The notes below the pieces were generated by a model. That model was not told where the DNA came from and made no database searches. It was given only the letters and a program-made list of their open reading frames with translations. Shown here piece after piece: positions 9,550 through 35,571 of a stretch of DNA of 38,991 bases (positions are counted from its first letter, which is position 1; every line of letters begins with the position of its first letter). Both the position numbers and the translations under genes were made by a program. Source of the DNA: a bacterium. Lineage in GTDB: Bacteria; Sysuimicrobiota; Sysuimicrobiia; Sysuimicrobiales; Kaftiobacteriaceae. The DNA is taken from contig DASSGA010000073.1 of NCBI GenBank assembly GCA_035693805.1, positions 1 through 38,991 on the forward strand, written 5' to 3'.

Positions 9550-9551
9550 TG

Positions 9552-9603
9552 TGATAGAATGCCACGCGTCCGCCCCCGTGCCGCCGTGATGCGGCGCGGG
9601 GGC
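9552..9603 (+). promoter_or_regulatory. candidate extended -10 promoter (TGATAGAAT 9552-9560) plus 13-bp leader hairpin (9572-9603) upstream of rplU; possible L21-leader-type element or rng terminator
   Basis: GCCCCCGUGCCGC-CGUGAU-GCGGCGCGGGGGC pairs perfectly (one G-U). It lies between the rng stop (9549) and the rplU SD (AGGAGC 9630). Confidence 0.4.
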
Positions 9604-9642
9604 TATTGAGCCCTGGAGTGGTTGAGGTCAGGAGCGATTGTC

Positions 9643-9954
9643 ATGTACGCAGTGATCGAGAGCGGCGGGAAGCAGTACCGCGTGGAAGAAGGCGCGACGC
9701 TGCGGGTGGAGCTCCTGGAGGCGACACCTGGGGCGGAAGTGACCCTGGACCGGGTCTTGTACGTGTCTGACGGCGAGAAGGTCACCGTGGGGGCGCCCCT
9801 CGTGAAGGGCGCGGCCGTGCGGGCCACGGTGCTCGGCCACGACCGGGCGAAGAAGATCATCGTCTTCAAGTACAAGTCGAAAGCGCACTACCGCCGGAAG
9901 CAGGGGCATCGCCAGCACTTCACGGCCCTGCGCATCGACAAGATCACGCTGTAA
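9643..9954 (+). CDS. rplU: 50S ribosomal protein L21
   Basis: [17 protein letters not shown].. is the canonical L21 N-terminus. ATG 9643 is in frame within track ORF 9622..9954 and is preceded by an SD. Confidence 0.93.
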
Positions 9955-9967
9955 CCGAGGGCAGGCC

Positions 9968-10228
9968 ATGGCGCACAAGAAAGGCATGGGATCGTCCCGC
10001 AACGGGCGGGACAGCAAGAGTAAACGGCTGGGCGTGAAGGCGTACGCCGGCGCGCAGGTCACGGCCGGCAGCGTGCTCATCCGCCAGCGCGGCACGAAGG
10101 TGCAGCCGGGAACGAATGTCGGCATCGGCCGCGACTTCACCCTGTTCGCGCTGGTCGGCGGCCGGGTGGCCTTCGAGCGCCGCGGGCGCGATGGCAAGCA
10201 GGTGAGCGTCTATCCCGTGCAGGCGTAG
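9968..10228 (+). CDS. rpmA: 50S ribosomal protein L27
   Basis: [24 protein letters not shown].. is canonical L27, with no N-terminal propeptide. Confidence 0.95.
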
Positions 10229-13349: not shown

Positions 13350-14134
13350 ACCGAGATACAGGTTGGCTTCATAGTTATTGTGCGCACGGCACCGGAGCTG
13401 GATGTTGCCGGCGGTGGCCTGTCCAGCAGTCGCCGCGAACTTCTGCTTCGTCAGATCCGTGAGCAGCGCCGTCAGAGCGCGCGTTCCAGGATCTTCCCCA
13501 CATCCCCATCCGGTATCTGGTGCCGCAGGAGATCCCGGGCCGCGCGCAGCCTCGCCTGCATCTCGGCACTCGCCGTGAACTGCACCCTGTAGCATTGCGG
13601 GGCCAGCGGGGTGATGGTGCTCCTGTGCGCAGCCGCAGGTCCCGCGGTGACAGGGTGGCCCGGGGCCGGCGGCGAGCCATGCGCCATGTTCGGCAGGCTG
13701 CGCATGGACGAGCGGACCGGGGGCCGGGGTCGCAGCTGCGCGACGAGTTCTTCGACCTGACGCCGGCTCTTGTGCCTGACCGCCGTGAGGAGTTCACGAT
13801 GGTTGCATGTAGTGAGCTCGGGGGCGAGCAGCGTGATCGTCGTCAGGTTGACCGCCCCCTCGCCGAGCAGATCGAGGATGACTGGATACCGCCGAGCCGC
13901 CTGGATGCGACCGTACGCGGCGTGCTCGGAGAGGTGAAGGACCTGCGTGAGGTAGGTGAAGAGGGACGAGCATCCTTCGGCGAGGTACAGCTGTCGCTCG
14001 TCCAGGACGGACAGGTGGACGATCAGCACGGCGGTGGCGCGCCGCTCGTGGTCGGCCAGCTCTCTGACACGCGCGATAAGCTCGTGATTGGAGAGCCCTC
14101 GAGCACACGACATCATCCCCCGACTCGTGGACAT
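13350..14134 (-). pseudogene. decayed HNH endonuclease gene (frameshift plus loss of HNH core)
   Basis: The N-part (track ORF 13472..14236) has the family signature LYLAEGCSSLFTYLTQVLHLSEHAAYGRI..NLTTITLLAP..AVRHKSRRQVEELVA and ends ..ILERAL*. The expected continuation LTALLTDLTKQKFAAT..NIQLRCRAHNNYEA is in another frame (track ORF 13179..13595). The switch is at a CGCGCGC run (13477-13483). Confidence 0.65.
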
Positions 14135-14252
14135 GGTCTCCGTGCTCGCAAACGCCGCTTCTGTGCTCATGACTATCCATGATGGTGATCTGGCGCCTGC
14201 GCACAATGAACCACACGGGCTGCTCGGCCCATCCACGGAGGGACCGCGTCGA

Positions 14253-14282
14253 TTGACGGATCTCGGGAGCCGTCGGTATAAT
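14253..14282 (+). promoter_or_regulatory. sigma-70-type promoter of the T-box/ilvE-leuS operon
   Basis: TTGACG (14253-14258), 18-nt spacer, TATAAT (14277-14282). T-box Stem I begins about 15 nt downstream. Confidence 0.6.
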
Positions 14283-14476
14283 GACAGGGTCTGAAACGCG
14301 ATGAGCGGAAGCAGTAGGCTGGTGCTCGGGATGGAGCGAGCCGGTGGAGAGGGTGGAACGACCGGCGCCAGGAGTCAGCCGAACTCGTCCGCGAGCAGCA
14401 GGCCCGACCGCGCAGGGGCGTCTGGCGCGCAGGGCCGCCGTCCTCACACGATACGTGAGTTGAGCGGATAGCGAAT

Positions 14477-14551
14477 GGGGCTGTAGCTCAGCGGGAGAGC
14501 GCCCGCTTGGCGTGCGGGAGGTCGAGGGTTCAATTCCCTCCAGCTCCACCA
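14477..14551 (+). tRNA. tRNA-Ala (anticodon GGC), CCA encoded
   Basis: Full cloverleaf by hand: acceptor GGGGCUG/CAGCUCC with G3-U70, D stem GCUC/GAGC, anticodon stem CCCGC/GCGGG with loop UUGGCGU, variable loop AGGUC, T arm GAGGG-UUCAAUU-CCCUC, discriminator A, CCA. Confidence 0.93.
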
Positions 14552-14582
14552 GATCGCTATCACGTTGGGTGGTACCGCGGAG

Positions 14583-14622
14583 GCCGCCTTCGTCCCAATG
14601 GCGACGGCGGCATTTGTGTTTT
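14583..14622 (+). terminator. T-box intrinsic terminator
   Basis: GCCGCC(U)UCGUC-CCAAU-GGCGA(C)GGCGGC hairpin followed by AUUUGUGUUUU. Its 5' arm overlaps the 3' half of the antiterminator. Confidence 0.8.
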
Positions 14623-14663
14623 CACCGGCGATCTGCTCGTTCATCAACGACGGGGGGATGGCG

Positions 14664-15692
14664 ATGGGGGGCGCGGCATCGATCTGGTTCAACGGGGCCT
14701 TGGTGAACGCGGCGGAGGCGCGCGTGCCGGTCACGGCGCACGCCCTGCACTATGGCAGCAGCGTCTTCGAGGGGATCCGGGCCTACGCGACGCCGAAAGG
14801 GCCGGCCGTATTCTGCCTGCCCCAGCACGTGCGGCGGTTGATGGACTCGTGCCGGATCTTCAGGATGACGCTGCCGTACACAGCCACCGAGGTAACGGAG
14901 GCGATCGTGGCCACGGTGCGCGCGAACAAGCACGAGAGCTGCTACATCCGTCCGCTCGTGTTTCGCGGGCCGGGGACGTTCAGCCTCGACCCGCGGACGG
15001 CCTCGGTTGAAGTGGCGATCATCACCTTCGAGTGGGGACGCTACCTGGGGCACGAGGCCGTGGAGCAGGGTGTCGACGTGATGGTCAGTTCCTGGCGGCG
15101 CGCCGCGCCCGATACCGCCGTGCCGATGGCGAAGATCGGCGGACAGTACGTGACCTCGCAGTTCATCGCGATGGAGGCCGCCGACCACGGTTTCAACGAG
15201 GGCATCGCCCTGGACGCGCAAGGGTTCATCAGCGAGGGCAGCGGCGAGAACGTCTTCATGGTGCGCGACGGGGTGGTGTTCACCCCGCCGCTGTCGGCGG
15301 GCGTCCTGCCCGGCGTCACGCGCGCGGCCGTGCTGACCCTGCTGCGCGATCTCGGGCTTCCGGTCCGTGAGGAGCCATTGCTGCGCGAGACATTGTACAT
15401 GGCCGACGAGGTGTTCTTCACCGGCACCGCCGCGGAGATCACACCGGTGCGGTCGGTGGACCGCATCGCGGTCGGCGAGGGCCGCCGGGGACCGGTGACG
15501 GCCAAGGTGGCCGAGCAGTTCTTCGGGATCACCGGGGGGCACCTGCCCGACCGACACGGCTGGCTCACGTACGTGAGCGCCGACCGGCCCAGCAGCGCCA
15601 CTCGCTCCGGCAGCGGGGATGACTCGGGCGACGGCCACCGTGCGGGCGACGGTCCCGCGCCGGCGCGCCGCGGCAGCGGCGAGCGGGCGTAG
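14664..15692 (+). CDS. ilvE: branched-chain amino acid aminotransferase (class IV PLP)
   Basis: IWFNGALV..A.V.V..HALHYGSSVFEGIRAY matches the IlvE N-terminus. ATG 14664 has GGGGGG 6 nt upstream; ATG 14658 is also possible. The track start 14565 lies inside the T-box. 38-aa low-complexity C-terminal tail. Confidence 0.9.
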   Translation: MGGAASIWFNGALVNAAEARVPVTAHALHYGSSVFEGIRAYATPKGPAVFCLPQHVRRLMDSCRIFRMTLPYTATEVTEAIVATVRANKHESCYIRPLVFRGPGTFSLDPRTASVEVAIITFEWGRYLGHEAVEQGVDVMVSSWRRAAPDTAVPMAKIGGQYVTSQFIAMEAADHGFNEGIALDAQGFISEGSGENVFMVRDGVVFTPPLSAGVLPGVTRAAVLTLLRDLGLPVREEPLLRETLYMADEVFFTGTAAEITPVRSVDRIAVGEGRRGPVTAKVAEQFFGITGGHLPDRHGWLTYVSADRPSSATRSGSGDDSGDGHRAGDGPAPARRGSGERA

Positions 15693-15707
15693 AGGAGTCG
15701 AACGTCC

Positions 15708-18164
15708 ATGGTCCAGCGATACGATCCGGTGTCGATCGAGGCGAAGTGGCAGGCGCGGTGGGAGGCCGACGGGCTGCACCACGCCCGCGACTTCGATCCG
15801 GCCCCGAAGTGGTACTTCCTGACGATGTACCCGTATCCATCGGGGGACCTGCACATCGGTCACTGGTACGCGATGGCGCCCTCCGACGCCGCGGCGCGCT
15901 TCAAGCGGATGCAGGGGTACAACGTGATGTTCCCGATCGGCTTCGACGCCTTCGGACTCCCGGCGGAAAACGCCGCCATCCAGCACAAGATCCATCCGTA
16001 TCGATGGACGATGGACAACATCGCCCGGATGCGAGCGCAGCTGCGCTCCATGGGGGCGATGTGGGACTGGCAGCGCGAGGTCGTCACCTGCGATCCCGAC
16101 TACTACCGCTGGAACCAGTGGTTCTTCCTGAAGATGTACGAGAAGGGGCTGGCCTACCGGGCGCTCGCGCCGGTGGACTGGTGCCCCACGGACAACACGA
16201 CCCTGGCCCGCGAGCAGGTCGTCGGCGAGGAGCGGGTCTGCGAGCGCTGCGGGACACCGGTCATCAAGAAGAACCTGGAGCAGTGGTTCCTCCGGATCAC
16301 GGCATACGCCGACGAACTGCTGGACTTCTCCGGCATCGAGTGGCCCGAGCGCGTGCGGGTGCTGCAGGAGAACTGGATCGGCAAGAGCGTCGGCGTCGAG
16401 TTCGAGCTGAAGATCGCCGGCCACGCCGGGGTAGGGTTCCGCGTCTTCACGACGCGTCCCGACACCGTGTACGGGATGACCTTTGCGGTCCTGGCGCCGG
16501 AACATCCCCTGGTTGATCGTCTCACCGCGCCGGACCGCAGAGCACAGGTTGAGGCCTACAAGTTCAAGGCGGCGCGCGAGTCCGACATCGAGCGGATGTC
16601 CACCGAGAAAGAGCGCGACGGCGTCTTCATCGGTGCGTACGCCTTGAACCCGATGAACCAGGAGCAGGTGCCGATCTTCATCGCGGACTATGTGCTGCTG
16701 ACCTATGGCACCGGCGCCATCCAGGGCGTGCCGGCCCACGACGCGCGGGACTTCGACTTCGCAAAGAAGTACCGCCTGCCGATCCCCGTCGTCATCGCCC
16801 CCCCGAGCTGGGACGGCGCCCCGCCGCGCGAGGCCTATCTGGGCGAGGGGACGATGGTGAACTCAGGTCCGTTCGACGGCATGCCGTCCGCGATGGGCTG
16901 GCAAGCCATCGCGGACTCCATGGAGCAGCATCGTCTCGGCGAGAGGAAAGTGAACTACAGGCTGCATGACTGGCTGATCAGCCGCCAGCGGTACTGGGGG
17001 ACGCCGATTCCGATCCTCTACTGCCCGCGCTGCGGAACCGTGCCGGTCCCGGAGACGGATCTGCCGGTCCGGCTCCCGATGGACGCGGAGTTCCTGCCGA
17101 CCGGCGAGTCGCCGCTCAAGCAGCACGAAGGCTTCCGGAAGGTCGCGTGTCCGACCTGCGGTGGGGAGGCCGAGCGCGAGACGGACACGATGGACACCTT
17201 CATCGACTCGTCCTGGTATCAGTACCGGTACGTCAGCCCGCACGAGCCCGACCGTCCCTTCGACCCGGCGCCGGGCGCGTACTGGCTGCCGGTCGATCAG
17301 TACACGGGCGGCGTCGAGCACGCCGTGATGCACCTGCTGTATACGCGGTTCTGGACGAAGGTGATGCGCGATCTGGGGCTGGTGACCTTTGGGGAACCGA
17401 TGACGCGGCTGTTCAACCAGGGCGTCATCCTGGGCGAAGACGGCGAGAAGATGAGCAAGTCTCGCGGCAACGTGGTGAACCCGGACGACTACGTCGCCAC
17501 GATGGGCGCGGACGTGGTGCGCGCGTACCTGATGTTCATCGGGCCGTGGGACGGCGGCGGCCCCTGGAACAGCCGGGGGATCGAAGGCGCGCAGCGCTTC
17601 CTGCAGCGGGTGTGGATGGTCGTTGCCGGCAGTGCGTCATCCGAGCGTGGAGCATCGGCGGCGCCTTCAGCCAATGGCACACGGGACCTGCGGCATTGGA
17701 CGCACAGAACGATCAAGAGAGTCACCGAAGATCTCCACGGCTTCCACTTCAATACCGCGATCGCCGCGATGATGGAGTTCGTGAACTTCCTGACCAAGGG
17801 CAAGGAGGTCATGGCCGGCACACCGGCCTGGCGCGAAGCGATCCGCACGCTCGTGCTGCTGCTCGCGCCCATCGCGCCGCACCTCGCCGAGGAGCTGTGG
17901 GAGAAGCTCGGCGGGCCGTACAGCGTGCACCGGCAGGCGTGGCCCGCGTACGATGACACGCTGGCGCGCGCGGAGCTGGTCACCCTGGTGCTGCAGGTCA
18001 ACGGCAGGGTGCGTGACCGCATCATGGTCTCGGCCGAGCTCAGCGAGGCCGAGGCTCGGCAGTTGGCGCTTCAGAATGAGAGGGTCAAGAAGTTCGTGAA
18101 TGGGAAGTCGGTCGCCGACGTCGTGGTCGTGCCCGGCCGCTTGGTGAACGTCGTTACGGGGTGA
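15708..18164 (+). CDS. leuS: leucyl-tRNA synthetase (canonical copy)
   Basis: 818 aa. HIGH (15852-15863), KMSKS (17448-17462), CP1 editing motifs TTRPDT and GTGAIQGVPAHDARD, LeuRS C-terminal domain. Confidence 0.95.
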   Translation: MVQRYDPVSIEAKWQARWEADGLHHARDFDPAPKWYFLTMYPYPSGDLHIGHWYAMAPSDAAARFKRMQGYNVMFPIGFDAFGLPAENAAIQHKIHPYRWTMDNIARMRAQLRSMGAMWDWQREVVTCDPDYYRWNQWFFLKMYEKGLAYRALAPVDWCPTDNTTLAREQVVGEERVCERCGTPVIKKNLEQWFLRITAYADELLDFSGIEWPERVRVLQENWIGKSVGVEFELKIAGHAGVGFRVFTTRPDTVYGMTFAVLAPEHPLVDRLTAPDRRAQVEAYKFKAARESDIERMSTEKERDGVFIGAYALNPMNQEQVPIFIADYVLLTYGTGAIQGVPAHDARDFDFAKKYRLPIPVVIAPPSWDGAPPREAYLGEGTMVNSGPFDGMPSAMGWQAIADSMEQHRLGERKVNYRLHDWLISRQRYWGTPIPILYCPRCGTVPVPETDLPVRLPMDAEFLPTGESPLKQHEGFRKVACPTCGGEAERETDTMDTFIDSSWYQYRYVSPHEPDRPFDPAPGAYWLPVDQYTGGVEHAVMHLLYTRFWTKVMRDLGLVTFGEPMTRLFNQGVILGEDGEKMSKSRGNVVNPDDYVATMGADVVRAYLMFIGPWDGGGPWNSRGIEGAQRFLQRVWMVVAGSASSERGASAAPSANGTRDLRHWTHRTIKRVTEDLHGFHFNTAIAAMMEFVNFLTKGKEVMAGTPAWREAIRTLVLLLAPIAPHLAEELWEKLGGPYSVHRQAWPAYDDTLARAELVTLVLQVNGRVRDRIMVSAELSEAEARQLALQNERVKKFVNGKSVADVVVVPGRLVNVVTG

Positions 18165-18195
18165 ACGCCGCGGTGACGCCGATCGAGGGGGTCGC

Positions 18196-20640
18196 GTGAG
18201 AGGCGGGCCGTACGATTTCGCCACGGTCGAAGCCCGGTGGCGGCGGGCCTGGGACGAGCAGGGCATCTACCGCACGCCCGAGCCGTCACCCCGGCCGAAG
18301 CAGTACGTCCTCGATTTCTTCCCGTACCCGTCCGGGGCGGGACTCTCCGTCGGCCACGCCAGGAACTACGTGCCGACCGACGTGCTCGCCCGGTACTTGC
18401 GCATGCGTGGGAATGCGGTGCTGCACCCCATGGGCTGGGATGCCTTCGGCCTGCCGGCTGAGAACGAAGCGCTGCTGCGCGGCCGGCATCCCGGGGAGAC
18501 GACGCGCGAGTACGCCGCGAACTACCGGGCTCAGCTCAGCCTGCTCGGGTGTTCGTACGACTGGTCGCGGGAGATCGCGACGAGCGATCCGGCCTTCTAC
18601 CGCTGGACCCAGTGGGGCTTCCTCCTGCTGCACCGGAGAGGACTGGCCTACCGTGCGGTGGGGTGGCAGTGGTGGTGCCCGAAGTGCCAGACCATCCTGG
18701 CCAACGAGCAGGTCGAAGCCGGGCGGTGCTGGCGCCACGGCGACACACCTGTGGAACGCCGGTCGCTCGAGCAATGGTACGTCCGCACGACTACCCTTGC
18801 TGACCGGCTGCTGCGAGACCTCGACGACCTGGACTGGCCCGAGCACGTCAAGACCATGCAGCGAAACTGGATCGGGCGCGCCGCGGGGGCCGAGATCCGC
18901 TTCCCCCTGCCGTGGGGCGGAGGGGAGATCGCCATCTTCACGACGCGTCCGGAGACGCTGCCGGCCGCGACCTTCATCGCACTCGCGCCCGAGCATCCCC
19001 GTGCGGTCGAGCTGGCCTCCTCCGATCGGCGAGCCGACGTGGAGCGCTTCGTCATGGGCGCCCTGCGCCGGACGGAGATCGAGCGGATGGTGGGCGCTGG
19101 GATCGCCCGCAGGGCGAATGGCGGGATGGCCGACGGCGGCGGCGCGGGCGGGATCTTCACCGGGGCATTCGCCGCCCACCCCACGAGCGGCGACCTCGTG
19201 CCGGTGTACGTAGCGGATTACGTGCTGGCCCACTACGGGACGGGCGCCGTGATGGGGGTTCCGGCCTGCGACGAGCGGGACGCGGTCTTTGCGCGCCGCT
19301 TCGGCCTGCCGGTGGGGACCGGCCGTCCCATCGGTGACCCTGACGGGGTGCTGGCCGACGTCGCGCGGCGCGGTGCCGGCGGTCCGGCCGTCCGCTACCG
19401 GATGCGGGACTGGCTGATCAGCCGCCAGCGGTACTGGGGCGCCCCGATCCCGATCGTGTACTGCGAGCGCTGCGGGACGGTGCGCGTCCCGGAGGATCAA
19501 CTCCCGGTTCGACTGCCAGAGGTTGCACGCTACGAGCCATCAGGCGACGGCCGCTCCCCTCTGGCAACCATTCCGGAGTTCGTCCACACCACGTGCCCTC
19601 AGTGCGCCGGTCCTGCCGAACGCGAGACGGACACGCTCGACGGCTTCGCGGATTCGAACTGGTATTTTCTTCGCTTTGCGGACGTCCGGTATGACACCGG
19701 TCCGTGGCATCCGGAGGCCACGGGCTACTGGCTGCCGGTGGACTGGTACATCGGCGGCGTCGAGCACGCCGTGATGCACCTGCTCTACGCCCGGTTCTTC
19801 ACCAAGGTCTTGCAGGACGCGGGACTCATCGCCTTCGGGGAGCCCTTCGTCCGGCTGCGCAACCAGGGCAGCATGCTCTCGCCGTCCGACGGCGCCAGGA
19901 TGAGCAAGTCCCGCGGCAACGTCGTGACCCCGGACGAGGTGGTCGCCCAGCACGGAGCGGATGCCTTGCGGCTGGCCGTGATGTTCATCGGCCCATTCGA
20001 TCAGGACGTCACCTGGGACCCGGACGCGGCGAGGGGGGCCGCGCGTTTCGTCCGCCGCCTTCACCTGCTGATCGCCCGGGCCGCGGAGGCCGCAGCCCGC
20101 CCCGCTCCGCCGGCCACAGGAGAGCCTCCGGGGGCTGAGGCGCCGCGCCGGCGGCTCCACCACGCGATCAGGACGGTAGGGGAGTTGATCGAAGGATTCC
20201 GGTTCAACGTGCTCGTCGCGGAGTTGATGACTCTGCTCAACGATCTCGAGCCCCTCGAGTCAGGCTGGGCGGGCACGCCCCAGTGGCGCGAGGCGATGCT
20301 GATGCTTGTCCGGATCATCGCGCCGGTCACCCCATTCCTTGCGGAGGAGGCCTGGGCCATGCTCGGTGGGGAGGGAAGTGTTCACCAGAGCAGTTGGCCC
20401 AAGGGTGACCCGGCGCTCACGGCGGAGGGGGACGCGGAAGCGACCATCGTCGTCCAGGTGGACGGGCGCGTGCGCGATCGCATCGTGGTGAAGGGGATCC
20501 CGGACCGGGACGTCCTCATCGAGGCCGCCCGGGGGCGGGAGAGGATCGCCTCGGTGCTCGCGGGGCGTGACGTGGTGGATGTCGTGGTGATCCCCGGCCG
20601 CGTGGTCAACTTCGTCACAGCGAGACGGGGGGAGAGGTAA
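18196..20640 (+). CDS. leucyl-tRNA synthetase paralog with variant signature motifs
   Basis: 814 aa intact ORF, collinear with bacterial LeuRS (WDAFGLPAEN, CPKCQTILANEQV, TTRPET, RDWLISRQRYWG, GGVEHAVMHLLYARFF). HIGH reads SVGH (18346-18357), KMSKS reads RMSKS (19897-19911), the editing-site motif reads GVPACDERD. Confidence 0.88.
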   Translation: MRGGPYDFATVEARWRRAWDEQGIYRTPEPSPRPKQYVLDFFPYPSGAGLSVGHARNYVPTDVLARYLRMRGNAVLHPMGWDAFGLPAENEALLRGRHPGETTREYAANYRAQLSLLGCSYDWSREIATSDPAFYRWTQWGFLLLHRRGLAYRAVGWQWWCPKCQTILANEQVEAGRCWRHGDTPVERRSLEQWYVRTTTLADRLLRDLDDLDWPEHVKTMQRNWIGRAAGAEIRFPLPWGGGEIAIFTTRPETLPAATFIALAPEHPRAVELASSDRRADVERFVMGALRRTEIERMVGAGIARRANGGMADGGGAGGIFTGAFAAHPTSGDLVPVYVADYVLAHYGTGAVMGVPACDERDAVFARRFGLPVGTGRPIGDPDGVLADVARRGAGGPAVRYRMRDWLISRQRYWGAPIPIVYCERCGTVRVPEDQLPVRLPEVARYEPSGDGRSPLATIPEFVHTTCPQCAGPAERETDTLDGFADSNWYFLRFADVRYDTGPWHPEATGYWLPVDWYIGGVEHAVMHLLYARFFTKVLQDAGLIAFGEPFVRLRNQGSMLSPSDGARMSKSRGNVVTPDEVVAQHGADALRLAVMFIGPFDQDVTWDPDAARGAARFVRRLHLLIARAAEAAARPAPPATGEPPGAEAPRRRLHHAIRTVGELIEGFRFNVLVAELMTLLNDLEPLESGWAGTPQWREAMLMLVRIIAPVTPFLAEEAWAMLGGEGSVHQSSWPKGDPALTAEGDAEATIVVQVDGRVRDRIVVKGIPDRDVLIEAARGRERIASVLAGRDVVDVVVIPGRVVNFVTARRGER

Positions 20641-20651
20641 CCTCTCCCCCC
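20627..20651. terminator. 11-bp perfect GC-rich palindrome between convergent genes (possible bidirectional terminator)
   Basis: GGGGGGAGAGG-TAA-CCTCTCCCCCC, with the leuS-paralog stop codon in the loop. No U-tract on either side. Confidence 0.4.
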
Positions 20652-20674
20652 GCGCGTGCGACGTGCGATACAGG

Positions 20675-21940
20675 TCAGCGGCCGGCTTCAGGTCCGACCA
20701 GTACCGTGAACTGGCGCTGGGCCTGGCCCAGCCGGCTGTGCGTCGACGTCACCGTGATCAGGTAGGGTGAGTTGGGCGCGATGACGTTGATCGGGACCTG
20801 CATGCTGAACCGGCCGCGCGGTCCGGCCGTGGCGGTCCCCCGTCCGACCGGGACGCCGAGGAACCAGCTCACGGCCACCTCGACGCGGGACCCGGCCGCC
20901 GTGGTACCGCTCACGCGGATCGGGCTGCCCACGGTCTGGCCTTCACGAGGCTCGGTGACCGTGAGCGTTATGTCGCTCGTCGGGATCTGGGCGGCGCCGG
21001 TGATGATGTTCGCCTCCCAGGCTTCCTTCGTGCTCGGATTCAGGCGGAGTTCCACGACCTGACCCGCCCGCAGAGCCGCGACGCCCCCGGCCTGGACCTG
21101 GCCGTTGGCCAGGACCACCAGATTCGGGACGAACCGGATGGCCCGGCCGTCGGTCAGCACGATGGTGCGGCTGGTCGAGGCGATGGCCTCGATGCGTCCG
21201 CTCGTCTCTGTGGTCGTGGCCCGAATGCGCGTGGCCACCTCACCAGACAGGGTCACCTCGACCTCATCGCCGGGGCGCAGGGCCGCGACGCCCACCGCGC
21301 CGCCCCTCCCCGACGCGCTGTCGATGCGGGTGATCGCGGTGTCGGTGTTGATCCGGAGCGTGTAGGCGACAGTGCCGGATTCGACGACGATCCGCGGCTG
21401 ATCCTGAGCCGACTGAGCCAGGATCACGTTCGTGATCGTGCCGCGGATACTGCTCGTCTGGGGCGGGGCCGGCGGCTGGGTCACGGGCGGCTGCTGGGCC
21501 GGCTGACCGCCCGTTCCGCTCGTGATCAGGACCGTGCGGGTCTCGGGCTGCCACGTGACGGTGGCCCCCAGCGACTCGCTGATGAAGCGCAGCGGCACCA
21601 GGGTCCGGGCGCCGATGATCGCGGCCGGGACGTCGAGCGTCACGGGCCGCCCGTCTACGCGGGCGATGCGGCTGCCGATCTGGAGCTCAACGAGGGTGCT
21701 CGCACGGGCGGCGAGCACCGTCCGGGTCTGGGGACGCCACTCGACGGTGGCCCCCATCTGCTCGAAGATGCCGCGCAGCGGCACGAGCACGCGGCTGCCC
21801 TGGATGACGGGCGGCTGGTCGAACGCGACGGGCGAGCCGTCGACGAAGACCCGGACCGCCCCCTGGGCGATGACAGGAAGGCTGATCGCGGCGACAGCTA
21901 CGATCGCCGCCAGTACCACGGTGGAGCCTCGGAGTCGCAT
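20675..21940 (-). CDS. secreted protein with copper-amine-oxidase N-terminal (stalk) domains, Pro-rich linker and Ig-like C-terminal region
   Basis: Signal peptide, then two repeats of the V.V.G......P.I..GR.LVPLR.I.E.LGA.V.W...T.TV motif, then linker QPPVTQPPAPPQ. AGGAGGA SD spacing favours the 4th-codon ATG (21940) over 21949. Confidence 0.7.
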   Translation of the reverse strand: MRLRGSTVVLAAIVAVAAISLPVIAQGAVRVFVDGSPVAFDQPPVIQGSRVLVPLRGIFEQMGATVEWRPQTRTVLAARASTLVELQIGSRIARVDGRPVTLDVPAAIIGARTLVPLRFISESLGATVTWQPETRTVLITSGTGGQPAQQPPVTQPPAPPQTSSIRGTITNVILAQSAQDQPRIVVESGTVAYTLRINTDTAITRIDSASGRGGAVGVAALRPGDEVEVTLSGEVATRIRATTTETSGRIEAIASTSRTIVLTDGRAIRFVPNLVVLANGQVQAGGVAALRAGQVVELRLNPSTKEAWEANIITGAAQIPTSDITLTVTEPREGQTVGSPIRVSGTTAAGSRVEVAVSWFLGVPVGRGTATAGPRGRFSMQVPINVIAPNSPYLITVTSTHSRLGQAQRQFTVLVGPEAGR

Positions 21941-22020
21941 ACAGATCATTCCTCCTATTCGAGCATGGTCTGGTGCGGGCGACCCGTGCGCCGCGCCGCC
22001 TCGCTTGCTGCTGACAAGAC

Positions 22021-22052
22021 GACAGCCCGGCAGCCAGAGGCCCCGGGCTGTC
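22021..22052 (-). terminator. hairpin downstream of the small secreted-protein gene
   Basis: GACAGCCCGG / CCGGGCTGTC 10-bp stem with a 12-nt loop. Only a weak U-rich tail on the minus strand. Confidence 0.35.
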
Positions 22053-22073
22053 GATGCTGTCGCGCGGGGCGAC

Positions 22074-22319
22074 CTAGGGCGGCCCCGCGGCCGCGAGCTG
22101 CTCGTTCACCAGTCGAACGGCCTCGGCCCGCGTGATCCAGTTCCCGGACTGCTGGAACGTCAGCCAGCGCAGGTACTCGGGGAGCGACATGTAGTTCGCT
22201 TCGGCCGAGAATGGGTCAAGGTTCGCGACGTTGGGAACCTGCTGCGCGAACGCCGGAGCGATCGCGCCGGTCAGGAGCAACAGGGTCAGCACCAGCACGA
22301 TGATGCCTCGATGGCTCAT
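22074..22319 (-). CDS. small secreted hypothetical protein
   Basis: 81 aa. Strong SD (AGGAGGAGGG) upstream. Signal peptide IIVLVLTLLLLTGAIAPAFA|QQ. No family recognised. Confidence 0.55.
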   Translation of the reverse strand: MSHRGIIVLVLTLLLLTGAIAPAFAQQVPNVANLDPFSAEANYMSLPEYLRWLTFQQSGNWITRAEAVRLVNEQLAAAGPP

Positions 22320-22411
22320 GTGTCTCTTCCCTCCTCCTACAGTGTGTGACGCGGTCCTTCGCAGTCCGCGCGGTTGGATTTATCCCCCGGCCCGGCGGCC
22401 ATCAAACTTCG

Positions 22412-22435
22412 TGAATCACGCGCTGAATCACGCGC
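22412..22435. repeat. perfect 12-nt tandem direct repeat (TGAATCACGCGC x2) in a divergent intergenic region
   Basis: Read directly: TGAATCACGCGC at 22412-22423 and again at 22424-22435, between the minus-strand small gene and the plus-strand anti-sigma/sigma operon. Confidence 0.9.
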
Positions 22436-22608
22436 CGGGAAACCGTGCGGTTCGAGCCATCGTCTTGGGGGAAAAAGCATTTGGTTAGGGGAAGAGATGG
22501 TAGCTGATACGTCGCCCCCCGTTCCAGGTGTTGCCGCGGCGGCTGTGGGGGGAAATTCCCCGGCGGTGATCCCCCCGTGCGCCAACGCCGCCTCAAGCGA
22601 GAGGACAG

Positions 22609-23001
22609 GTGAACCTCGTGGACCAGCACCCAGCGACCGAGCACATCGAGCTCACTGTGCCCGGCCGTCCGGAGTACGTCGTCGTCGTCCGGCTGGCCGC
22701 GGCGGCCATCGCCGGGCGCATGGCCTTTTCCTTCGACGACATCGAGGATCTCAAGGTGGCCGTGGGCGAGGTCTGCACCGCGGCCATCCTCGAGGGCGGG
22801 CCGAGCGTGCGCATCACGTTCGAGGTGGCGACCGAAGCGCTCAGCGTGACGGTCCGCCACCACGCCGCGCGCCCCCGCCGGCATGCGGCGGAGGAGGAGC
22901 TCGACAAGCTGCTCGTGCGTGTGCTGATGGACGAGGTTGCCACCGACGCCGACGGAGGGGAGCGAATCACCCGGCTCGTCAAGCGCACCACAGCCACATA
23001 A
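22609..23001 (+). CDS. RsbW/SpoIIAB-like anti-sigma factor with degenerate ATP-binding motifs
   Basis: 130 aa immediately upstream of a SigB/F-type sigma gene (3-nt gap). HATPase-like N-region (IELTVPGRPEYVVVVRLAAAAIA, VAVGEVCTAAILEG), but the N-box Asn/His and the DxGxG G-boxes are not evident. The GTG start is uncertain (22609 or 22618). Confidence 0.6.
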   Translation: MNLVDQHPATEHIELTVPGRPEYVVVVRLAAAAIAGRMAFSFDDIEDLKVAVGEVCTAAILEGGPSVRITFEVATEALSVTVRHHAARPRRHAAEEELDKLLVRVLMDEVATDADGGERITRLVKRTTAT

Positions 23002-23003
23002 GC

Positions 23004-23771
23004 ATGGCCACCCGATCGAGCAAGCACCGCCAGGACAAAGAGGCGCTCCGCGCGCAGTTCGTCAAGTTCGCGGAGACCCGCGATGCAGCGATCCGCGAGT
23101 CGCTCGTCCTGGCGTACAGCAGCCTGGCCGCCTACATGGCGCGCAAGTTCGCGAACCGCGGGGAGCCCCTGGACGATCTCACCCAGGTGGCGAGCATCGG
23201 CCTGCTCAAAGCGATCGACCGCTTCGACCCGACGCGCGGCATCGAATTCACCACATATGCCACGGTGACGATTGTCGGCGAGATCAAGCGCCACTTCCGC
23301 GACAAGTTCTGGACGGTCCGCGTGCCGCGGCGGCTGCGCGAGCTGAACAACTCGCTGATGAAATCCATGGAGTCCCTGTCGCAGCGCCTGGGCCGCTCGC
23401 CGACACTGCAGGAGATCGCGGAGGAGTCGCGGGTCCCCTTCGAGGAAGTCGTCGAGGCCTTCGAGCTCGGCCGCGCCTACAACCCGGCCTCACTCGATGC
23501 GGAGCTGGCCGAGGGCGACGAGGACCACGGCACCTCGCTCATGGACTACCTCGGCGGAGATGATCCCGAGCTCGCCCGGCTGGAGGACCGCCACACGCTG
23601 GAAGGCGCCCTGCGCACGCTGCCGGAGCGGCAGCACGAGATTCTGCGGCTGCGCTACTACGAGGGGCTCTCGCAGGCGGAGATCGCACGCCAGCTCGGCA
23701 TCTCGCAGATGCACGTCTCGCGCATCCAGCGTGACGCGCTGAAGCGCCTCAAGGAGCTCATCGAGGCTTAG
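23004..23771 (+). CDS. group-3 sigma factor (SigB/SigF/SigG family)
   Basis: ATG 23004 within the long track ORF 22374..23771. Region 2 DDLTQVASIGLLKAIDRFDP..FTTYA, region 3, and region 4 LSQAEIARQLGISQMHVSRIQ. Confidence 0.9.
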   Translation: MATRSSKHRQDKEALRAQFVKFAETRDAAIRESLVLAYSSLAAYMARKFANRGEPLDDLTQVASIGLLKAIDRFDPTRGIEFTTYATVTIVGEIKRHFRDKFWTVRVPRRLRELNNSLMKSMESLSQRLGRSPTLQEIAEESRVPFEEVVEAFELGRAYNPASLDAELAEGDEDHGTSLMDYLGGDDPELARLEDRHTLEGALRTLPERQHEILRLRYYEGLSQAEIARQLGISQMHVSRIQRDALKRLKELIEA

Positions 23772-26433
23772 CGCCGAGCCAGACGAGCTCCACCGAGGTT
23801 CCCTCAGCGCCCGTCTCGACGTTCACCTCGTCGGCGAACTGCCGCATGATGCGCAGGCCGCGCCCGCGGCCGCGCTCGACGGGTTCGCGCCACTCCCCCA
23901 CATCACGCACCGTGACGACGAGAGCGTCTCCGCGCCGCTCTCCCCTGACGTGCAGCTGCCCCCCCGCGGCCCGGTAGGCGTGCTCGACCGTGTTCAGCGC
24001 CGCCTCGCCCACAGCGAAGACGATCTCCTCTGCCCGCTCGGGCCGGATCCCGCAGCGCTCCGCGAAGGCTCGCACGGCGCGGCGAACCCGGTGCAGCGAT
24101 TCCGGGGTGGCTGGGACGCTGAACGACAGCGGGGCGTCGGCGGGGAGGAGGTCCACCACGACAATGGCCGTGTCGTCTTCGTGCCGATGGCTGCCGAGCA
24201 CGAGGTCGGCGAGCCGCTGCGCCGTGCGGGTCGGGGGCTCGGCGCGGGTCTCCTCGGACGCCTCGATGAGCCGCCGCTCGCTCCCCGCGATGTCGCGGGT
24301 GGCTTCCAGCAACCCATCCGTGCAGGCGATCAGCCGCGTGCCTGGCGGGAGCTGCAGGCGCCGTTCAGGATAGGCCAGCGTGGTCATCAGCCCGACCGGC
24401 GGGGCGGCGCAGGACACAGGGTCGGGTGGGTCTTCCGGGCGCAGGATGAGCACCGGAGGGTGGCCACCGCCGGCGTGTGTGAACGCGCCGGTATAGGGGT
24501 CGAGCGTGGCGATCCACACCGACAGCTGGGGGCCGTCCGGGAGGCGGCAGAGGAAGCGGTTGAGCGTCGAGACGATCTCTCCCGGACCGCGTCCCTCGAG
24601 CGCGTAGGCGCGGACGATGTGCCGCACCTGGCCCATCGCGGCGGCGGCCTGCACCCCGTGCCCGGCGATGTCACCCATGCTGAGGAGGATGGTGTCATCC
24701 GGCAGGATGAGCGCGTCGTACCAATCGCCGCCGATGCCCGCCTCAGGATCGGCCGGGAGGTAGAACGCGCCGATCGCCGTGAATGGCGGCTCGGGCAGCC
24801 CGGCCGGCAGGAGGGCGCGCTGCAGCGTCTCGGAGAGCTCTCCGGCCCTTCGCTGCACCTGGTCGAACAACTGAAAGCGAGAGACCGTGAGCGCGAGTTG
24901 ATCGGCGATGGGCTGGGCAAGTCGCGCGTCGGACTCGGTGTACGCTCCGGGGCGCTCATGGCCGAAGTTCAGCGTTCCGATGACACGGCCGCCGACGCGC
25001 ATCGGGACGACCAGGTAGGACCGGATTCCGGTTTCGCCGAGGAGAGTGTCCTCGGAGAACTCGTCCACCGCGGCGGTGTCGGTACGGATGTGGGGGCGAC
25101 CGTGATCGATCACCCAGCCGCGGGCCGTCCCCTCTTTGGGCCCCTCCAACCGCTGGGATGGGCCCGTCAGGGGCGATCCCTTGACATATGGCACCGTCAG
25201 GATGCCCTTGTCGGGGACGTGCAGCGACACGGAGACACGCACGAACGAAATCAGCATCCGCAGCGCGTCGGCGAATTCGTCGAAGACGTCGCCCAGGTCG
25301 ACCGCCGACGCGGCGAGGCCGATTAACGTGTTAATCGCGTTCACGCGGCGCGCGGACTCCTCGGCTTCGGCCCGCGCCTGCTGCTCCGCGGCGTACAGAT
25401 GCGCGGTATCGATCGCCCGCGCGGCACGGCGCGCGATCTCCTCGGCGAGGGACAGGTCATCTGCAGTGAACCGGCGGCCGGACGGGCCCGAGACGAAGGA
25501 CATCACCCCGAAGACCCGGCCCCGTAAGGCCACTGGCACGATCATGTGCGCGCGGATGTCCAGCGCGCGCAGCAGCGCCAGGTGGTCGGCATCGTGTGCG
25601 CGCGCGCGCAGGTCGTCGTCCGTGATCGTTTCCTGCAGGATCGACCCACCACTACGGATGACCTGGAACAGCGGGTGCGGCGGTTGGGTATCCGGGGAAG
25701 GGGGGTAGCGGCGGCGCAGCTCCCGGGCCAGCTCTTCCCGGGCCGGGGCGACGTGGGCGAGCGCCACCTGCCGCAGCGTCCCATCGTCGCCGAGCACATC
25801 CACCAGGCACCAGTCCGCGACCGCGGGCACGATCAGTCGCACGACGTTCGCGAGCGTGGTCTCGTAGTCGAGGGACGTGGCCAGGATGCGACTGGCCTCC
25901 GCAACGATCCCCAGGCGGCGCCTCGCCCGCTCCGCCTCGGCCAGCGCCTCGGCATCGACCTCGGCGCGCCGGGCGAGCTGGATGGGACCGCTGAGGAGCG
26001 AGCCCGCCCGCTGTAACAGGGTGAGGTCCGCTGCGGAGAAGGCGTCCGGTTCAGTGGAATCCACCTCGAGCAGCCCGAAGGGTTTCCCCCGCCAGGCCAG
26101 AGGGACGGCGAGGTAGGAGCGGATCGGCGTCGTGCGGCGGAGCCCTTCGGCCACGACGTCCCCTGAGAGGAATGGCTCCCCGGTTTCGATGACCTGCCAC
26201 GACCGGCCGCTGCCGCGGTTCACACGCTGTCCCTGGGCGTCGGCGGCGAAGGGACCGACCGCGGCCTGGACGACCAGCGCGTCGCCATCCACAAGGGCGA
26301 TGGATCCGCCGGTGAACGGGATAGCCCGGGCGAGGTGCTCGAGCGCCGCGTCGAGGATGCGGTCGAGGTCCGATTCACCCGAGGCGGCGAGGGCGATGGC
26401 GTTGAGCAGCTCGATCTCGCGAGGGTCCGCCAT
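23758..26433 (-). CDS. 3xGAF - PP2C (SpoIIE/RsbU-type) phosphatase - RsbW-like HATPase fusion protein
   Basis: 891 aa. Three GAF-like blocks. PP2C core (GGDWYDAL, MGDIAGHG, ACTDGLLEA). C-terminal kinase-like domain with N-box EAALNTVEHA and G-box GRGRGL. 14-nt convergent overlap with the sigma gene. Confidence 0.88.
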   Translation of the reverse strand: MADPREIELLNAIALAASGESDLDRILDAALEHLARAIPFTGGSIALVDGDALVVQAAVGPFAADAQGQRVNRGSGRSWQVIETGEPFLSGDVVAEGLRRTTPIRSYLAVPLAWRGKPFGLLEVDSTEPDAFSAADLTLLQRAGSLLSGPIQLARRAEVDAEALAEAERARRRLGIVAEASRILATSLDYETTLANVVRLIVPAVADWCLVDVLGDDGTLRQVALAHVAPAREELARELRRRYPPSPDTQPPHPLFQVIRSGGSILQETITDDDLRARAHDADHLALLRALDIRAHMIVPVALRGRVFGVMSFVSGPSGRRFTADDLSLAEEIARRAARAIDTAHLYAAEQQARAEAEESARRVNAINTLIGLAASAVDLGDVFDEFADALRMLISFVRVSVSLHVPDKGILTVPYVKGSPLTGPSQRLEGPKEGTARGWVIDHGRPHIRTDTAAVDEFSEDTLLGETGIRSYLVVPMRVGGRVIGTLNFGHERPGAYTESDARLAQPIADQLALTVSRFQLFDQVQRRAGELSETLQRALLPAGLPEPPFTAIGAFYLPADPEAGIGGDWYDALILPDDTILLSMGDIAGHGVQAAAAMGQVRHIVRAYALEGRGPGEIVSTLNRFLCRLPDGPQLSVWIATLDPYTGAFTHAGGGHPPVLILRPEDPPDPVSCAAPPVGLMTTLAYPERRLQLPPGTRLIACTDGLLEATRDIAGSERRLIEASEETRAEPPTRTAQRLADLVLGSHRHEDDTAIVVVDLLPADAPLSFSVPATPESLHRVRRAVRAFAERCGIRPERAEEIVFAVGEAALNTVEHAYRAAGGQLHVRGERRGDALVVTVRDVGEWREPVERGRGRGLRIMRQFADEVNVETGAEGTSVELVWLGAKPR

Positions 26434-26468: not shown

Positions 26469-26834
26469 TCAGGACCGCGCGTCCGCGGACCAGGAGCGAG
26501 CAGCGCTGATGGCCTCAGGCTCGCCACGGAACACGGGGAACACTTCGTGGAGTCCTGTGATCGTGAAGATCTTCTCGATCTGGGGCTGATTGTACACGAG
26601 CGCGACGGTGCCCCCGGCGTCCCGGGCCTGCTTGAGCGCCGAGGTCAGGACGGATAGGGCCGTGCTGTCGAGATAGGTCGTGTTGAGCAGGTTGATCACC
26701 AGCCGGGCACGGCCCCCGGCCAGCACCTCCTGGATGGCCGCACGGAGCTTGGGGGAGGTGTAGATGTCGAGCTCACCGCGAACGTCGAGGATCTCCACGC
26801 CGGACTCTGACCGCCGGTGCAGCTGCACTTCCAC
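26469..26834 (-). CDS. STAS-domain anti-sigma-factor antagonist (RsbV/SpoIIAA family)
   Basis: GTG 26834 preceded by GGGAGGG. ILDVRGELDIYTSPKLR, phosphorylatable-loop YLDSTALSVL, and ITGL..VFPVF. 35 nt upstream of the PP2C fusion gene. Confidence 0.85.
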   Translation of the reverse strand: MEVQLHRRSESGVEILDVRGELDIYTSPKLRAAIQEVLAGGRARLVINLLNTTYLDSTALSVLTSALKQARDAGGTVALVYNQPQIEKIFTITGLHEVFPVFRGEPEAISAARSWSADARS

Positions 26835-27038
26835 GAGGTGGCCCTCCCTTCGAGCGCCTGGTAGAGCGCCTGGCTGAATCACGTGCCTTCCTGGCCGCGG
26901 GAGATGGATTCGCTGCCACGCCGGGCGGACCCCTCCTTTTCCCCACACGCCGGGGGCCGAATCGCCTGGAGGCGTTCGTTTGACCAGAGAGCGATGCGGG
27001 AAAAGACTCGCCGAGAACTGGCTGAAAGGAGGACGCGG

Positions 27039-35456: not shown

Positions 35457-35571
35457 CGCCGGTCGAGAGGGAAGCCTCTCCCCGTCCCGAATCCCCTCCG
35501 CAACAGCGATGCCTCGCGTGGCGTGCTTCGGCGTGGCGATACTATTCCGTCGTTTCCGGGAGGGGATAGCG

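Follow-up and report, generated by a model that had tools for sequence, protein, structure and literature searches.

Tandem leucyl-tRNA synthetase genes behind a predicted leucine T-box leader in Sysuimicrobiota, the second copy with an eroded CP1 editing domain

The window analysed here is the full 38,991-nucleotide (nt) stretch of contig DASSGA010000073.1 (assembly GCA_035693805.1), and all positions refer to its forward strand. It carries two genes for leucyl-tRNA synthetase (LeuRS), leuS copy 1 (leuS1) and leuS copy 2 (leuS2), which follow an ilvE-like aminotransferase gene and a predicted leucine T-box leader (Table 1). Both products pass the cutoff (548.4 bits) of the NCBIfam equivalog TIGR00396 (leuS_bact), copy 1 with 978.2 bits and copy 2 with 828.5 bits, and a full-length comparison of the two proteins gives 45% identity. 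Copy 1 has the motifs HIGH, KMSKS and GVPAHDARD. Their counterparts in copy 2 are SVGH, RMSKS and GVPACDERD (residues 354-362, with Cys358 encoded at nt 19267-19269), and its CP1 editing domain contains a Gly-rich loop. The open reading frames (ORFs), profile scores and motif positions bear out the original prediction for this DNA, which described two full-length bacterial-type leuS genes, head to tail and 31 nt apart, with these motifs at these places; the two blocks it cited, WCPTDNTTLAREQV and WWCPKCQTILANEQV, are also found in the window. A deletion in the C-terminal part of copy 2 CP1, the motif TTRPET and the upstream T-box leader had gone unmentioned.

Table 1. Features of the leuS locus and their positions in the window (aa, amino acids).
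Feature	Position	Strand	Remarks
Promoter-like sequence	14253..14282	+	TTGACG-18 nt-TATAAT, 11 of 12 consensus matches; directly upstream of the leader
Predicted T-box leader	14292..14600	+	Specifier loop GAA-CUC-G (leucine), T-box sequence UGGGUGGUACCGCG; RF00230, full model 1-219
Complete tRNA-Ala(GGC) gene	14477..14551	+	G3:U70, encoded CCA; in the Stem III loop; ARAGORN, Rfam tRNA 69.5 bits
Predicted intrinsic T-box terminator	14578..14624	+	Hairpin GCCGCC.UCGUC / GGCGA.GGCGGC, then AUUUGUGUUUU; overlaps the 3' half of the antiterminator
ilvE-like class IV (branched-chain) aminotransferase gene, first gene of the unit	14658..15692	+	PF01063, E = 1e-53
leuS copy 1, housekeeping LeuRS	15708..18164	+	818 aa, ATG start; TIGR00396; HIGH, KMSKS, complete CP1 with TTRPDT and AHDARD
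leuS1-leuS2 spacer, 31 nt	18165..18195	+	Shine-Dalgarno-like GAGGGGG, 4 nt before the GTG of copy 2
leuS copy 2, candidate accessory LeuRS of the SVGH subfamily	18196..20640	+	814 aa, GTG start; TIGR00396 match
SVGH, HIGH equivalent in copy 2	18346..18357	+	Codons tcc gtc ggc cac; subfamily-typical
Degenerate CP1 editing domain of copy 2 (about residues 228-402)	18877..19401	+	TTRPET, Cys358 for the universal His, about 27 C-terminal residues gone
Gly-rich low-complexity loop RRANGGMADGGGAGG (residues 305-319)	19108..19152	+	Part of a 13-residue insertion relative to Thermus thermophilus LeuRS
RMSKS, KMSKS equivalent in copy 2 (residues 568-572)	19897..19911	+	Catalytic second Lys kept; variant common in ordinary LeuRS

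The editing domain of copy 2 is shortened and has lost residues that are otherwise universal. The match to the Pfam editing domain PF13603 runs from position 1 to position 136 of the 185 in the profile, about nine residues stand where T. thermophilus LeuRS has about 40 (361-400), and the C-terminal part of CP1 comprises 18 residues as against about 45 in canonical enzymes. Universal positions were defined as the 186 columns at least 93% conserved in 128 canonical LeuRS, and the counts per region take in 182 of these. Copy 2 has lost 7 of the 34 universal CP1 positions, including H343C and D251E (T. thermophilus numbering, here and below, taken beyond residue 360 from the HMMER alignment), the latter motif reading TTRPET in place of TTRPDT; copy 1 has lost none, and canonical groups lose on average 0.1-1.0. 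The residues T249, T250, R251, T254, D359 and D362 are kept in the window's copy 2, the T. thermophilus equivalents of the threonine-rich and aspartate set being T247, T248, T252, D344 and D347. The Gly-rich loop is indel-polymorphic within the 90% cluster of copy 2 and is not found in more distant members of its clade. In an AlphaFold2 (AF2) model, loop residues 306-314 are predicted to be disordered, with a predicted local distance difference test (pLDDT) score below 50, and the rest of CP1 is compact.

Across the copy 2 clade, the state of CP1 maps onto the subclades of the copy 2 tree. Two basal subclades have a full CP1 with TTRVDT and HD.RD. In the window's subclade the C-terminal part has 18-20 residues left of about 45, C, G, S or A stands in for the universal His, and TTRPDT has become TTRPET or TTRPQT. 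CP1 is wholly absent from two further subclades. Erosion continues among close relatives: in P0251 and P0247, which share at least 92% identity with copy 2 of the window, an in-frame deletion of 19 residues takes out DERD, which corresponds to D344 and D347. These two aspartates anchor the amino group of the substrate in T. thermophilus LeuRS. Seven members of the window's cluster (at least 92% identical) carry G333R, a Gly-to-Arg change in the invariant YGTG, and one cluster member combines Cys to Ser with a Gly-rich loop 11 residues shorter.

The CP1-less paralogs are complete proteins of about 608-680 aa (P0023, P0025-P0028, P0030-P0032, P0035, P0037, P0043, P0071 and P0076). One of their genes, at 8001-10022 of the related locus L005, encodes 673 aa and lies between leuS1 and the next gene. 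The junctions read WIGRSEE, a 1-residue linker and GTVRY in one subclade, and WIGRTE, a 5-residue linker and xVRY in the other; since they differ, they suggest that CP1 was excised twice, independently. The window's copy 2 keeps 164 residues of the CP1 region and so is not itself CP1-less. Divided by core divergence, CP1 divergence comes to 0.80 for the copy 1 clade, to 1.20 for ordinary SVGH-type LeuRS and to 1.5-1.56 for the copy 2 clade. CP1 of copy 2 is under relaxed constraint and has been lost stepwise across the clade; the editing-site alteration first noted as a His-to-Cys change is thus real and part of a wider degeneration.

The remainder of the protein presents a different picture. 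Copy 2 aligns end to end with T. thermophilus LeuRS (1H3N), up to residue 876, and keeps D80, F501, S504, Y507, E540, H541, H545, Q574 and MSKS. Both zinc motifs, the anticodon-binding domain and the C-terminal domain are intact. Within the copy 2 clade the G and H of SVGH and the M, S, K and S of RMSKS are each invariant (38 of 38 members for MSKS), and H541, kept in the window's copy 2, is Gln in 8 of the 38. Outside CP1, copy 2 differs at 6 of 148 universal positions, and copy 1 differs at none of the 182. Three or four of the changes at universal positions are specific to the clade, namely I196T, S505N (beside the leucine pocket), M498L and Ala to Leu in the FNTAIA helix. The AF2 model of copy 2 has a mean pLDDT of 88.9 and a predicted template modelling score (pTM) of 0.87, and it superimposes on solved LeuRS structures, those of T. 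thermophilus, Escherichia coli and Neisseria gonorrhoeae among them, with template modelling (TM) scores of 0.73-0.84. From alignment and model, the catalytic machinery for leucylation of tRNA-Leu is predicted to be intact in copy 2.

Rates of evolution divide the protein in the same way. Ratios of nonsynonymous to synonymous substitution (dN/dS, Nei-Gojobori) are approximate here, with dS at about 1 and near saturation, and the contrasts are consistent in all pairs: for copy 2 they are 0.17-0.29 over the whole gene, 0.14-0.19 outside CP1 and 0.28-0.40 within it, and for copy 1 they are 0.08-0.22, 0.12-0.22 and 0.08-0.25, respectively. Outside CP1, copy 2 is as constrained as copy 1 and is under purifying selection. 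Together with the conserved motifs, these ratios reject pseudogene status, in agreement with the original prediction that a pseudogene was unlikely.

Trees of 166 aligned LeuRS were built by neighbour-joining from 590 non-CP1 columns. Each copy forms a clade with 100% bootstrap support, the two clades are sisters in 0 of 60 replicates, and copy 2 nests among SVGH-type Chloroflexota-like LeuRS. A recent tandem duplication is rejected by this placement and by the 45% identity, and the deep divergence first read from differing sequence blocks holds. The tandem arrangement is not an assembly artefact either, as the same synteny (obg, nadD, rsfS, GNAT gene, ilvE, leuS1, leuS2) is kept in independent assemblies: GCA_031459765.1 (L001), GCA_005882335.1 (L002), GCA_036505015.1 (L005) and the two assemblies L087/L088. 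L002 belongs to Candidatus Segetimicrobium genomatis of the phylum Candidatus Sysuimicrobiota, formerly CSP1-3, whose GC content agrees with the approximately 69% GC of the window (PMC11962464). The contig of another relative, L086, tracks the window through leuS1 (copy 1 96% identical) and about 35 nt of leuS2, and at about 5250-5634 passes abruptly into lower-GC sequence that by eye resembles the C-terminus of ribosomal protein L4; this is probably a chimeric metagenome contig end, and L086 was left out of the dN/dS comparison of copy 2.

Orthologs of copy 1 are abundant (72-96% identical), with one at every related locus examined. Copy 2 does not adjoin copy 1 in five lineages (L089, L090/L091, L092, L093 and L094), and wherever context is available it lies directly downstream of copy 1. 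The copy 1 tree, which stands in for a species tree, reproduces the subclades of copy 2; at its base are three genomes without copy 2, and two secondary losses (P0151, P0134) are nested among carriers. Pairwise distances of the two copies correlate (r = 0.75, 13 paired genomes), although copy 2 evolves 1.36-1.7 times faster than copy 1, and 1.36 times faster even on non-CP1 columns. The mirrored trees and correlated distances indicate that the pair has been inherited vertically, copy 1 as a constant and copy 2 as a dispensable member. GC content at third codon positions is 0.87 in copy 2 versus 0.90-0.95 in its neighbours, near enough that any transfer must be old. Acquisition of copy 2 is favoured by the basal lineages that are without it and by the shared T-box-leuS1 architecture. 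Annotation of the paralog clade is inconsistent: entries such as P0006, P0008, P0031 and the P0001 cluster are variously named "hypothetical protein", "class I tRNA ligase family protein" and "leucine--tRNA ligase". The 90% cluster of the window's copy 2 takes in one of them, OFX12619.1, a "hypothetical protein" of Armatimonadetes bacterium RBG_19FT_COMBO_69_19.

The variants SVGH and RMSKS had been put forward as alterations specific to the second copy, a claim that does not survive comparison with other LeuRS. SVGH is present in every homologue with a readable N-terminus among the best 120 of copy 2, and RMSKS is frequent there; these homologues include full-length proteins with canonical editing motifs, named leucine--tRNA ligase, from Chloroflexota/Anaerolineae/Anaerolineales. 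That search was word-indexed and could be biased. An independent outgroup panel consisted of 80 LeuRS of species-representative genomes, fetched by peptide patterns of which the SVGH motif formed no part and at most 52% identical to copy 2; the scan was dominated by the generic LeuRS peptide HPMGWDAF and is therefore no census of the copy 2 paralog in GTDB. SVGH occurs in 10 of the 80, in Anaerolineae (L006, L009, L010 and L012), Chloroflexota (L013), a Thermoleophilia metagenome-assembled genome (L011), Chthonomonas (L014), bacterium HR15 (L016) and two others, with L014 and L016 representing Armatimonadota. No second leuS was found within 6 kb of any SVGH-type panel gene, a range that does not prove single-copy status genome-wide. 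Of the proposition that SVGH and RMSKS are common in ordinary single-copy LeuRS, then, the part about their being common stands and the part about single copies is not proven.

Further comparison points to a shared origin. All sampled Chloroflexota-like relatives (100%) have Ser at the position of T. thermophilus H49, and copy 2 and the SVGH-type Chloroflexota-like LeuRS have in common this Ser, Phe at M40, Asp at V39 and a PYPSGxGL loop one residue longer. As copy 2 nests among these enzymes and shares these residues, its SVGH was inherited from its ancestor. The change at M40 was considered as a specificity change of the paralog and rejected, the same residue being found in ordinary SVGH-type LeuRS. 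The KMSKS equivalent of T. thermophilus LeuRS itself is VMSKS. In the copy 1 orthologs of a basal lineage without copy 2 (L090/L091, 6001-8454), there is a one-residue insertion before HIGH (PYPSGDYLHIGH) together with RMSKS, in L090 at a locus with no adjoining second leuS, so both motif regions vary even in the housekeeping clade. On these comparisons SVGH, and often RMSKS, appear as standard motifs of a LeuRS subfamily found in Chloroflexota/Anaerolineae and Armatimonadota. This corrects an annotation trap, in that both motifs are normal in Chloroflexota-type LeuRS.

Upstream of the genes, the predicted leader matches the T-box model RF00230 with 65.9 bits (E = 1e-13); the gathering score of 93 is not reached because a 79-nt tRNA is inserted in the leader, and relatives score 36.8-84.9 bits. 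The T-box surfaced only in an Rfam search by E-value, gathering thresholds giving the tRNA alone. The Stem I GA motif, the AG bulge and the distal loop are present, a purine follows the CUC codon, and none of the 11 aligned loci departs from CUC as the specifier. The discriminator, GAGCG-Stem III-AC with AA in most relatives, matches the signature RRRxG-Stem III-AA described for T-boxes (PMC7583486). Folding gives the antiterminator a 7-nt bulge and an energy of -15.5 kcal/mol, and the competing terminator, kept in relatives, an energy of -21.1 kcal/mol (z = -2.7). The promoter hexamers are kept in seven aligned loci (the window, L086, L001, L087, L005, L089 and L093). The same leader precedes (ilvE-)leuS1 in 8 of 9 related loci scanned with Rfam, genomes without copy 2 included, which suggests that copy 2 was added to an existing operon. 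L002 gave no T-box match at E <=0.001, and L086 and L094 were outside the Rfam scan.

The ORF of ilvE opens at 14565; the ATG at 14658, behind GGGGGG and downstream of the terminator, is its likely start, judging by the sequence and by orthologs 307-326 aa long. A consensus scan detected no terminator or promoter in the intergenic regions of ilvE-leuS1-leuS2, the spacer at 18165..18195 included; the same scan reported no plus-strand terminator in 14000-22400, and so overlooked the T-box terminator with its interrupted U-tract. The leuS1-leuS2 spacer is 7-25 nt long in L002, L005 and L087. From this spacing and the absence of detected signals between the genes, we infer that ilvE, leuS1 and leuS2 are co-transcribed. 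Read most simply, the three genes would form one attenuation unit that senses tRNA-Leu and is controlled by predicted antitermination.

The tRNA-Ala(GGC) nested in the leader is present in 10 of 10 related Sysuimicrobiota loci; 8 of these were also scanned with Rfam, and in 7 of the 8 a reported T-box match encloses the tRNA. The leader with its nested tRNA spans 4015-4333 in L001, 4202-4497 in L005, 4707-4993 in L087, 4677-4974 in L089, 4681-5020 in L090 and 2689-3005 in L093. Stem III shows compensatory changes (GGAUAGCG / CGCUAUC; GGACAGGUGCGC / GCGCCUGUC; GGAUGGACGC / GCGUCCGUC). Because the tRNA lies upstream of the terminator, it is predicted to be transcribed even with the switch off. 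In L002 (about 4127-4300) and L092 (about 2255-2900), additional repeat- and hairpin-rich insertions of some 100-250 nt lie around the nested tRNA and account for lowered or abolished Rfam scores. A literature search found no description of a tRNA gene inside a T-box leader.

We conclude, with a probability of roughly 55%, that copy 2 is a functional accessory LeuRS, impaired in editing and co-induced with the housekeeping LeuRS by accumulating uncharged tRNA-Leu. Horizontal transfer would most likely have placed copy 2 at the 3' end of a T-box-ilvE-leuS1 operon in the ancestor of a large Sysuimicrobiota subclade, and the gene would have been inherited vertically since its acquisition. A build-up of uncharged tRNA-Leu(GAG) would induce the three-gene unit, and copy 2 would then activate leucine and charge tRNA-Leu with weak or no post-transfer editing. 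Fidelity could come from copy 1, deacylating released mischarged tRNA-Leu in trans, or from the specificity of the synthetic site. The gain would be extra charging capacity under leucine limitation, and the loss of copy 2 in several lineages would be explained by a gene that is useful but dispensable.

Two known systems bear on these steps. The CP1-less LeuRS of Mycoplasma mobile aminoacylates and mischarges isoleucine, and standard assays show LeuRS acting in trans to deacylate free Ile-tRNA-Leu (PMC3643597). In that enzyme (3ZIU), CP1 is replaced by a short linker, as in the sister subclades of copy 2 (P0031 in L005, for example) with their 1-5-residue linkers, and the leucine-specific domain is missing in both. 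However, the M. mobile enzyme is the sole LeuRS of a parasite with a reduced genome, whereas here a CP1-poor enzyme stands beside an editing-competent LeuRS in a free-living, high-GC bacterium, and the window's copy 2 retains a truncated CP1. For the regulation, Bacillus subtilis tyrZ offers a second synthetase gene under uncharged-tRNA-sensing control (cited review). The alternative genes of B. subtilis lie apart from the main gene with their own leaders and regulators, whereas one leucine T-box here apparently drives ilvE and both leuS genes, from a leader that carries a nested tRNA-Ala gene. Another T-box-regulated alternative synthetase gene of B. subtilis is thrZ.

Several points weigh against this conclusion. 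I196T, S505N and the Ala-to-Leu change in the FNTAIA helix could mean altered substrate or tRNA handling, and further conserved residues of the anticodon-binding domain also vary in the copy 2 clade. Residual editing by the window's copy 2 is possible, given its retained threonines and both aspartates. The trees are neighbour-joining only, and the dN/dS values are approximate. SVGH-type LeuRS also occur in the neighbouring phylum Armatimonadota (L014, L016), and copy 2 could thus be the ancestral enzyme undergoing displacement. In a literature search SVGH was never mentioned together with 'tRNA synthetase'. Finally, two other second copies, haloarchaeal LeuRS2 and Sulfolobus LeuRS-I, charge tRNA poorly or not at all, and by analogy copy 2 might be the same.

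That last point underlies the foremost alternative, although an improbable one, in which copy 2 is non-canonical, binding tRNA-Leu and/or making leucyl-adenylate for a regulatory or tRNA-dependent function with little role in translation. Both characterised precedents of a second LeuRS are editing-impaired, aminoacylate poorly or not at all and are thought to act outside protein synthesis (PMC9437257, PMC4005665), and the clade-specific S505N beside the leucine pocket and the FNTAIA-helix change would fit such a role. Natrialba magadii has two cytoplasmic enzymes, NmLeuRS1 and NmLeuRS2, that are about 46% identical, very like the 45% of the pair described here, and that fall on separate tree branches; post-transfer editing is lost or greatly reduced in NmLeuRS2, and NmLeuRS1 carries the load (PMC4005665). 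However, NmLeuRS2 has Lys to Ser in KMSKS, a 38-residue Rossmann-fold insertion and approximately 100-fold weaker leucine activation, whereas copy 2 keeps its motifs, with MSKS, the last His and the pocket retained in essentially all 38 members. The Natrialba pair also has the archaeal-type C-terminal domain and is not described as tandem or T-box regulated, and it is in the copy 2 clade that CP1 is physically truncated or deleted. The LeuRS-I of Sulfolobaceae, as far as Weitzel et al. (2020) is summarised in PMC9437257, is likewise an extra paralog with a disrupted CP1, conserved in its lineage beside a canonical LeuRS; on the same account it is archaeal-type, has a divergent acidic C-terminal domain and does not aminoacylate, whereas copy 2 has a bacterial C-terminal domain and an intact predicted synthetic site. 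Conservation of this tRNA-binding domain, a dN/dS of the catalytic body equal to that of the housekeeping enzyme and a T-box sensing tRNA-Leu all fit a charging role better.

It is also unlikely, to almost the same degree, that the paralog has been kept precisely because it is free of editing, as a regulated-fidelity device in which the T-box induces a proofreading and an editing-free LeuRS together. Charging, possibly with norvaline, isoleucine or methionine, would then continue without the ATP-consuming editing cycle. If this were true, the repeated and precise elimination of CP1 would be adaptive, an instance of natural selection against proofreading in a free-living bacterium.

Doubtful to the same degree is a backup role, in which copy 2 is an inhibitor-insensitive LeuRS acquired horizontally as protection from a LeuRS inhibitor in the environment. 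Without its editing pocket, copy 2 could escape compounds that trap tRNA-Leu there, and the synthetic-site differences of the subfamily could defeat leucyl-adenylate mimics. Copy 2 does come from a different subfamily, an acquired second aminoacyl-tRNA synthetase is a classic route to resistance (PMC5388404, PMC9437257; AgnB2, PMC5059758), the editing site has repeatedly been eliminated from an otherwise conserved body, and the patchy distribution of copy 2 is as expected of a conditionally useful gene. However, the genes around copy 2 are core genome and provide neither a biosynthetic nor a resistance context, the intact CP1 of the basal subclades means that editing loss was not the initial reason for retention, and control by a leucine T-box points to the physiology of leucine limitation. 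Also against it, we know of no natural inhibitor that targets the LeuRS editing site.

The closest resistance precedent is AgnB2, the agrocin-84 immunity enzyme of Agrobacterium radiobacter K84 (5AH5; PMC5059758), also a second bacterial LeuRS without the leucine-specific domain alongside a genomic enzyme, to which the predicted structure of copy 2 is similar (TM scores 0.80-0.82). AgnB2 is linked to toxin biosynthesis and owes its resistance to KQSKS, Thr42 (Thr for Pro upstream of HIGH) and Ala102, whereas copy 2 has RMSKS and FPYPSG and differs mainly in CP1. With KQSKS, Thr42 and any biosynthetic context absent, AgnB2-like self-immunity is rejected, and the self-resistance role that the original prediction had listed finds no footing in this core-genome window.

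A somewhat smaller chance attaches to slow decay of a redundant gene, either a displaced ancestral LeuRS or an unneeded transferred gene, with the loss of CP1 as the first stage of pseudogenisation. The series from intact through truncated and deleted CP1 to loss of the whole gene could be read in this way, P0151 being nested in a CP1-less lineage and P0134 marking another secondary loss, as could the 1.36- to 1.7-fold faster evolution of copy 2 and the occurrence of the SVGH type as the LeuRS of neighbouring Armatimonadota. However, dN/dS outside CP1 stays at about 0.14-0.19 over lineages approximately 30% diverged in protein, the catalytic motifs are intact in 38 of 38 members, and the CP1 deletions are precise, in frame and at domain hinges. 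No copy with a frameshift or stop was seen, and the T-box and leuS1 are arranged no differently in the basal lineages that lack copy 2.

The first His of HIGH helps to stabilise the transition state in class I synthetases, and SVGH is a minority variant near copy 1: an index-free search of 1.84 billion representatives found it in 3 of the 119 nearest ones whose motif is readable. The core idea of the original prediction, that the changes from HIGH to SVGH and from KMSKS to RMSKS are signs of altered or specialised catalysis in copy 2, is nonetheless highly improbable, since SVGH is universal in apparently ordinary, full-length, editing-competent Chloroflexota/Anaerolineae LeuRS and present in Armatimonadota, RMSKS is frequent there and found in a copy 1 ortholog, T. 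thermophilus has VMSKS, and motifs so widespread in the subfamily were both inherited from the ancestor of copy 2.

The rest of the window is core genome, with mreBCD, PBP2, rodA, RNase E/G, obg, nadD and the GNAT gene, along with a partner-switching sigma module, an extracytoplasmic function (ECF) sigma/anti-sigma pair, arginase, spermidine synthase and a solute-binding protein; no biosynthetic cluster was found in it. Between the GNAT gene and the T-box promoter, an ORF of 254 aa (13472-14236, minus strand) has no significant Pfam match. Its counterpart in L001 is a 409-aa protein with a weak HNH match, and the ORF may be the remnant of a mobile HNH-type gene. The interval from the GNAT gene to ilvE differs among relatives, where it holds SPOR, BNR and toxin-antitoxin genes. 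In the partner-switching module, an 890-aa fusion (23758-26433, minus strand) joins three GAF domains, a SpoIIE/PP2C phosphatase and an HATPase_c_2 domain resembling anti-sigma kinases, so that phosphatase and kinase-like domain share one polypeptide. It adjoins a STAS protein (26469-26948, minus strand) and a SigB/F-like sigma factor (22374-23771, plus strand), whose ORF has a long and probably spurious N-terminal extension. A Peripla_BP_6 periplasmic binding protein is encoded at 35509-36828 (plus strand), about 15 kb downstream of the leuS pair, with orthologs at a similar distance in L001. The Peripla_BP_6 family includes binders of branched-chain amino acids, and a link of this protein to leucine supply is possible.

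LeuRS has been described as among the most evolutionarily stable synthetases (PMC5388404), and the characterised second copies are few and either archaeal or plasmid-borne; a literature search found no bacterial second LeuRS with editing loss. The pair described here is bacterial, chromosomal and vertically inherited, in an uncultured bacterium of soil and groundwater from a widespread uncultured phylum. A further result is its conserved predicted T-box leader, which holds a complete tRNA gene inside Stem III. Sister lineages of copy 2 form a graded series of editing loss, with CP1 intact, truncated, deprived of its active site or excised as a domain, and finally with the gene lost, and the synthetic core is constrained throughout. 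The series amounts to a natural experiment on when proofreading by an aminoacyl-tRNA synthetase becomes dispensable, and on how CP1 may be removed without losing aminoacylation.

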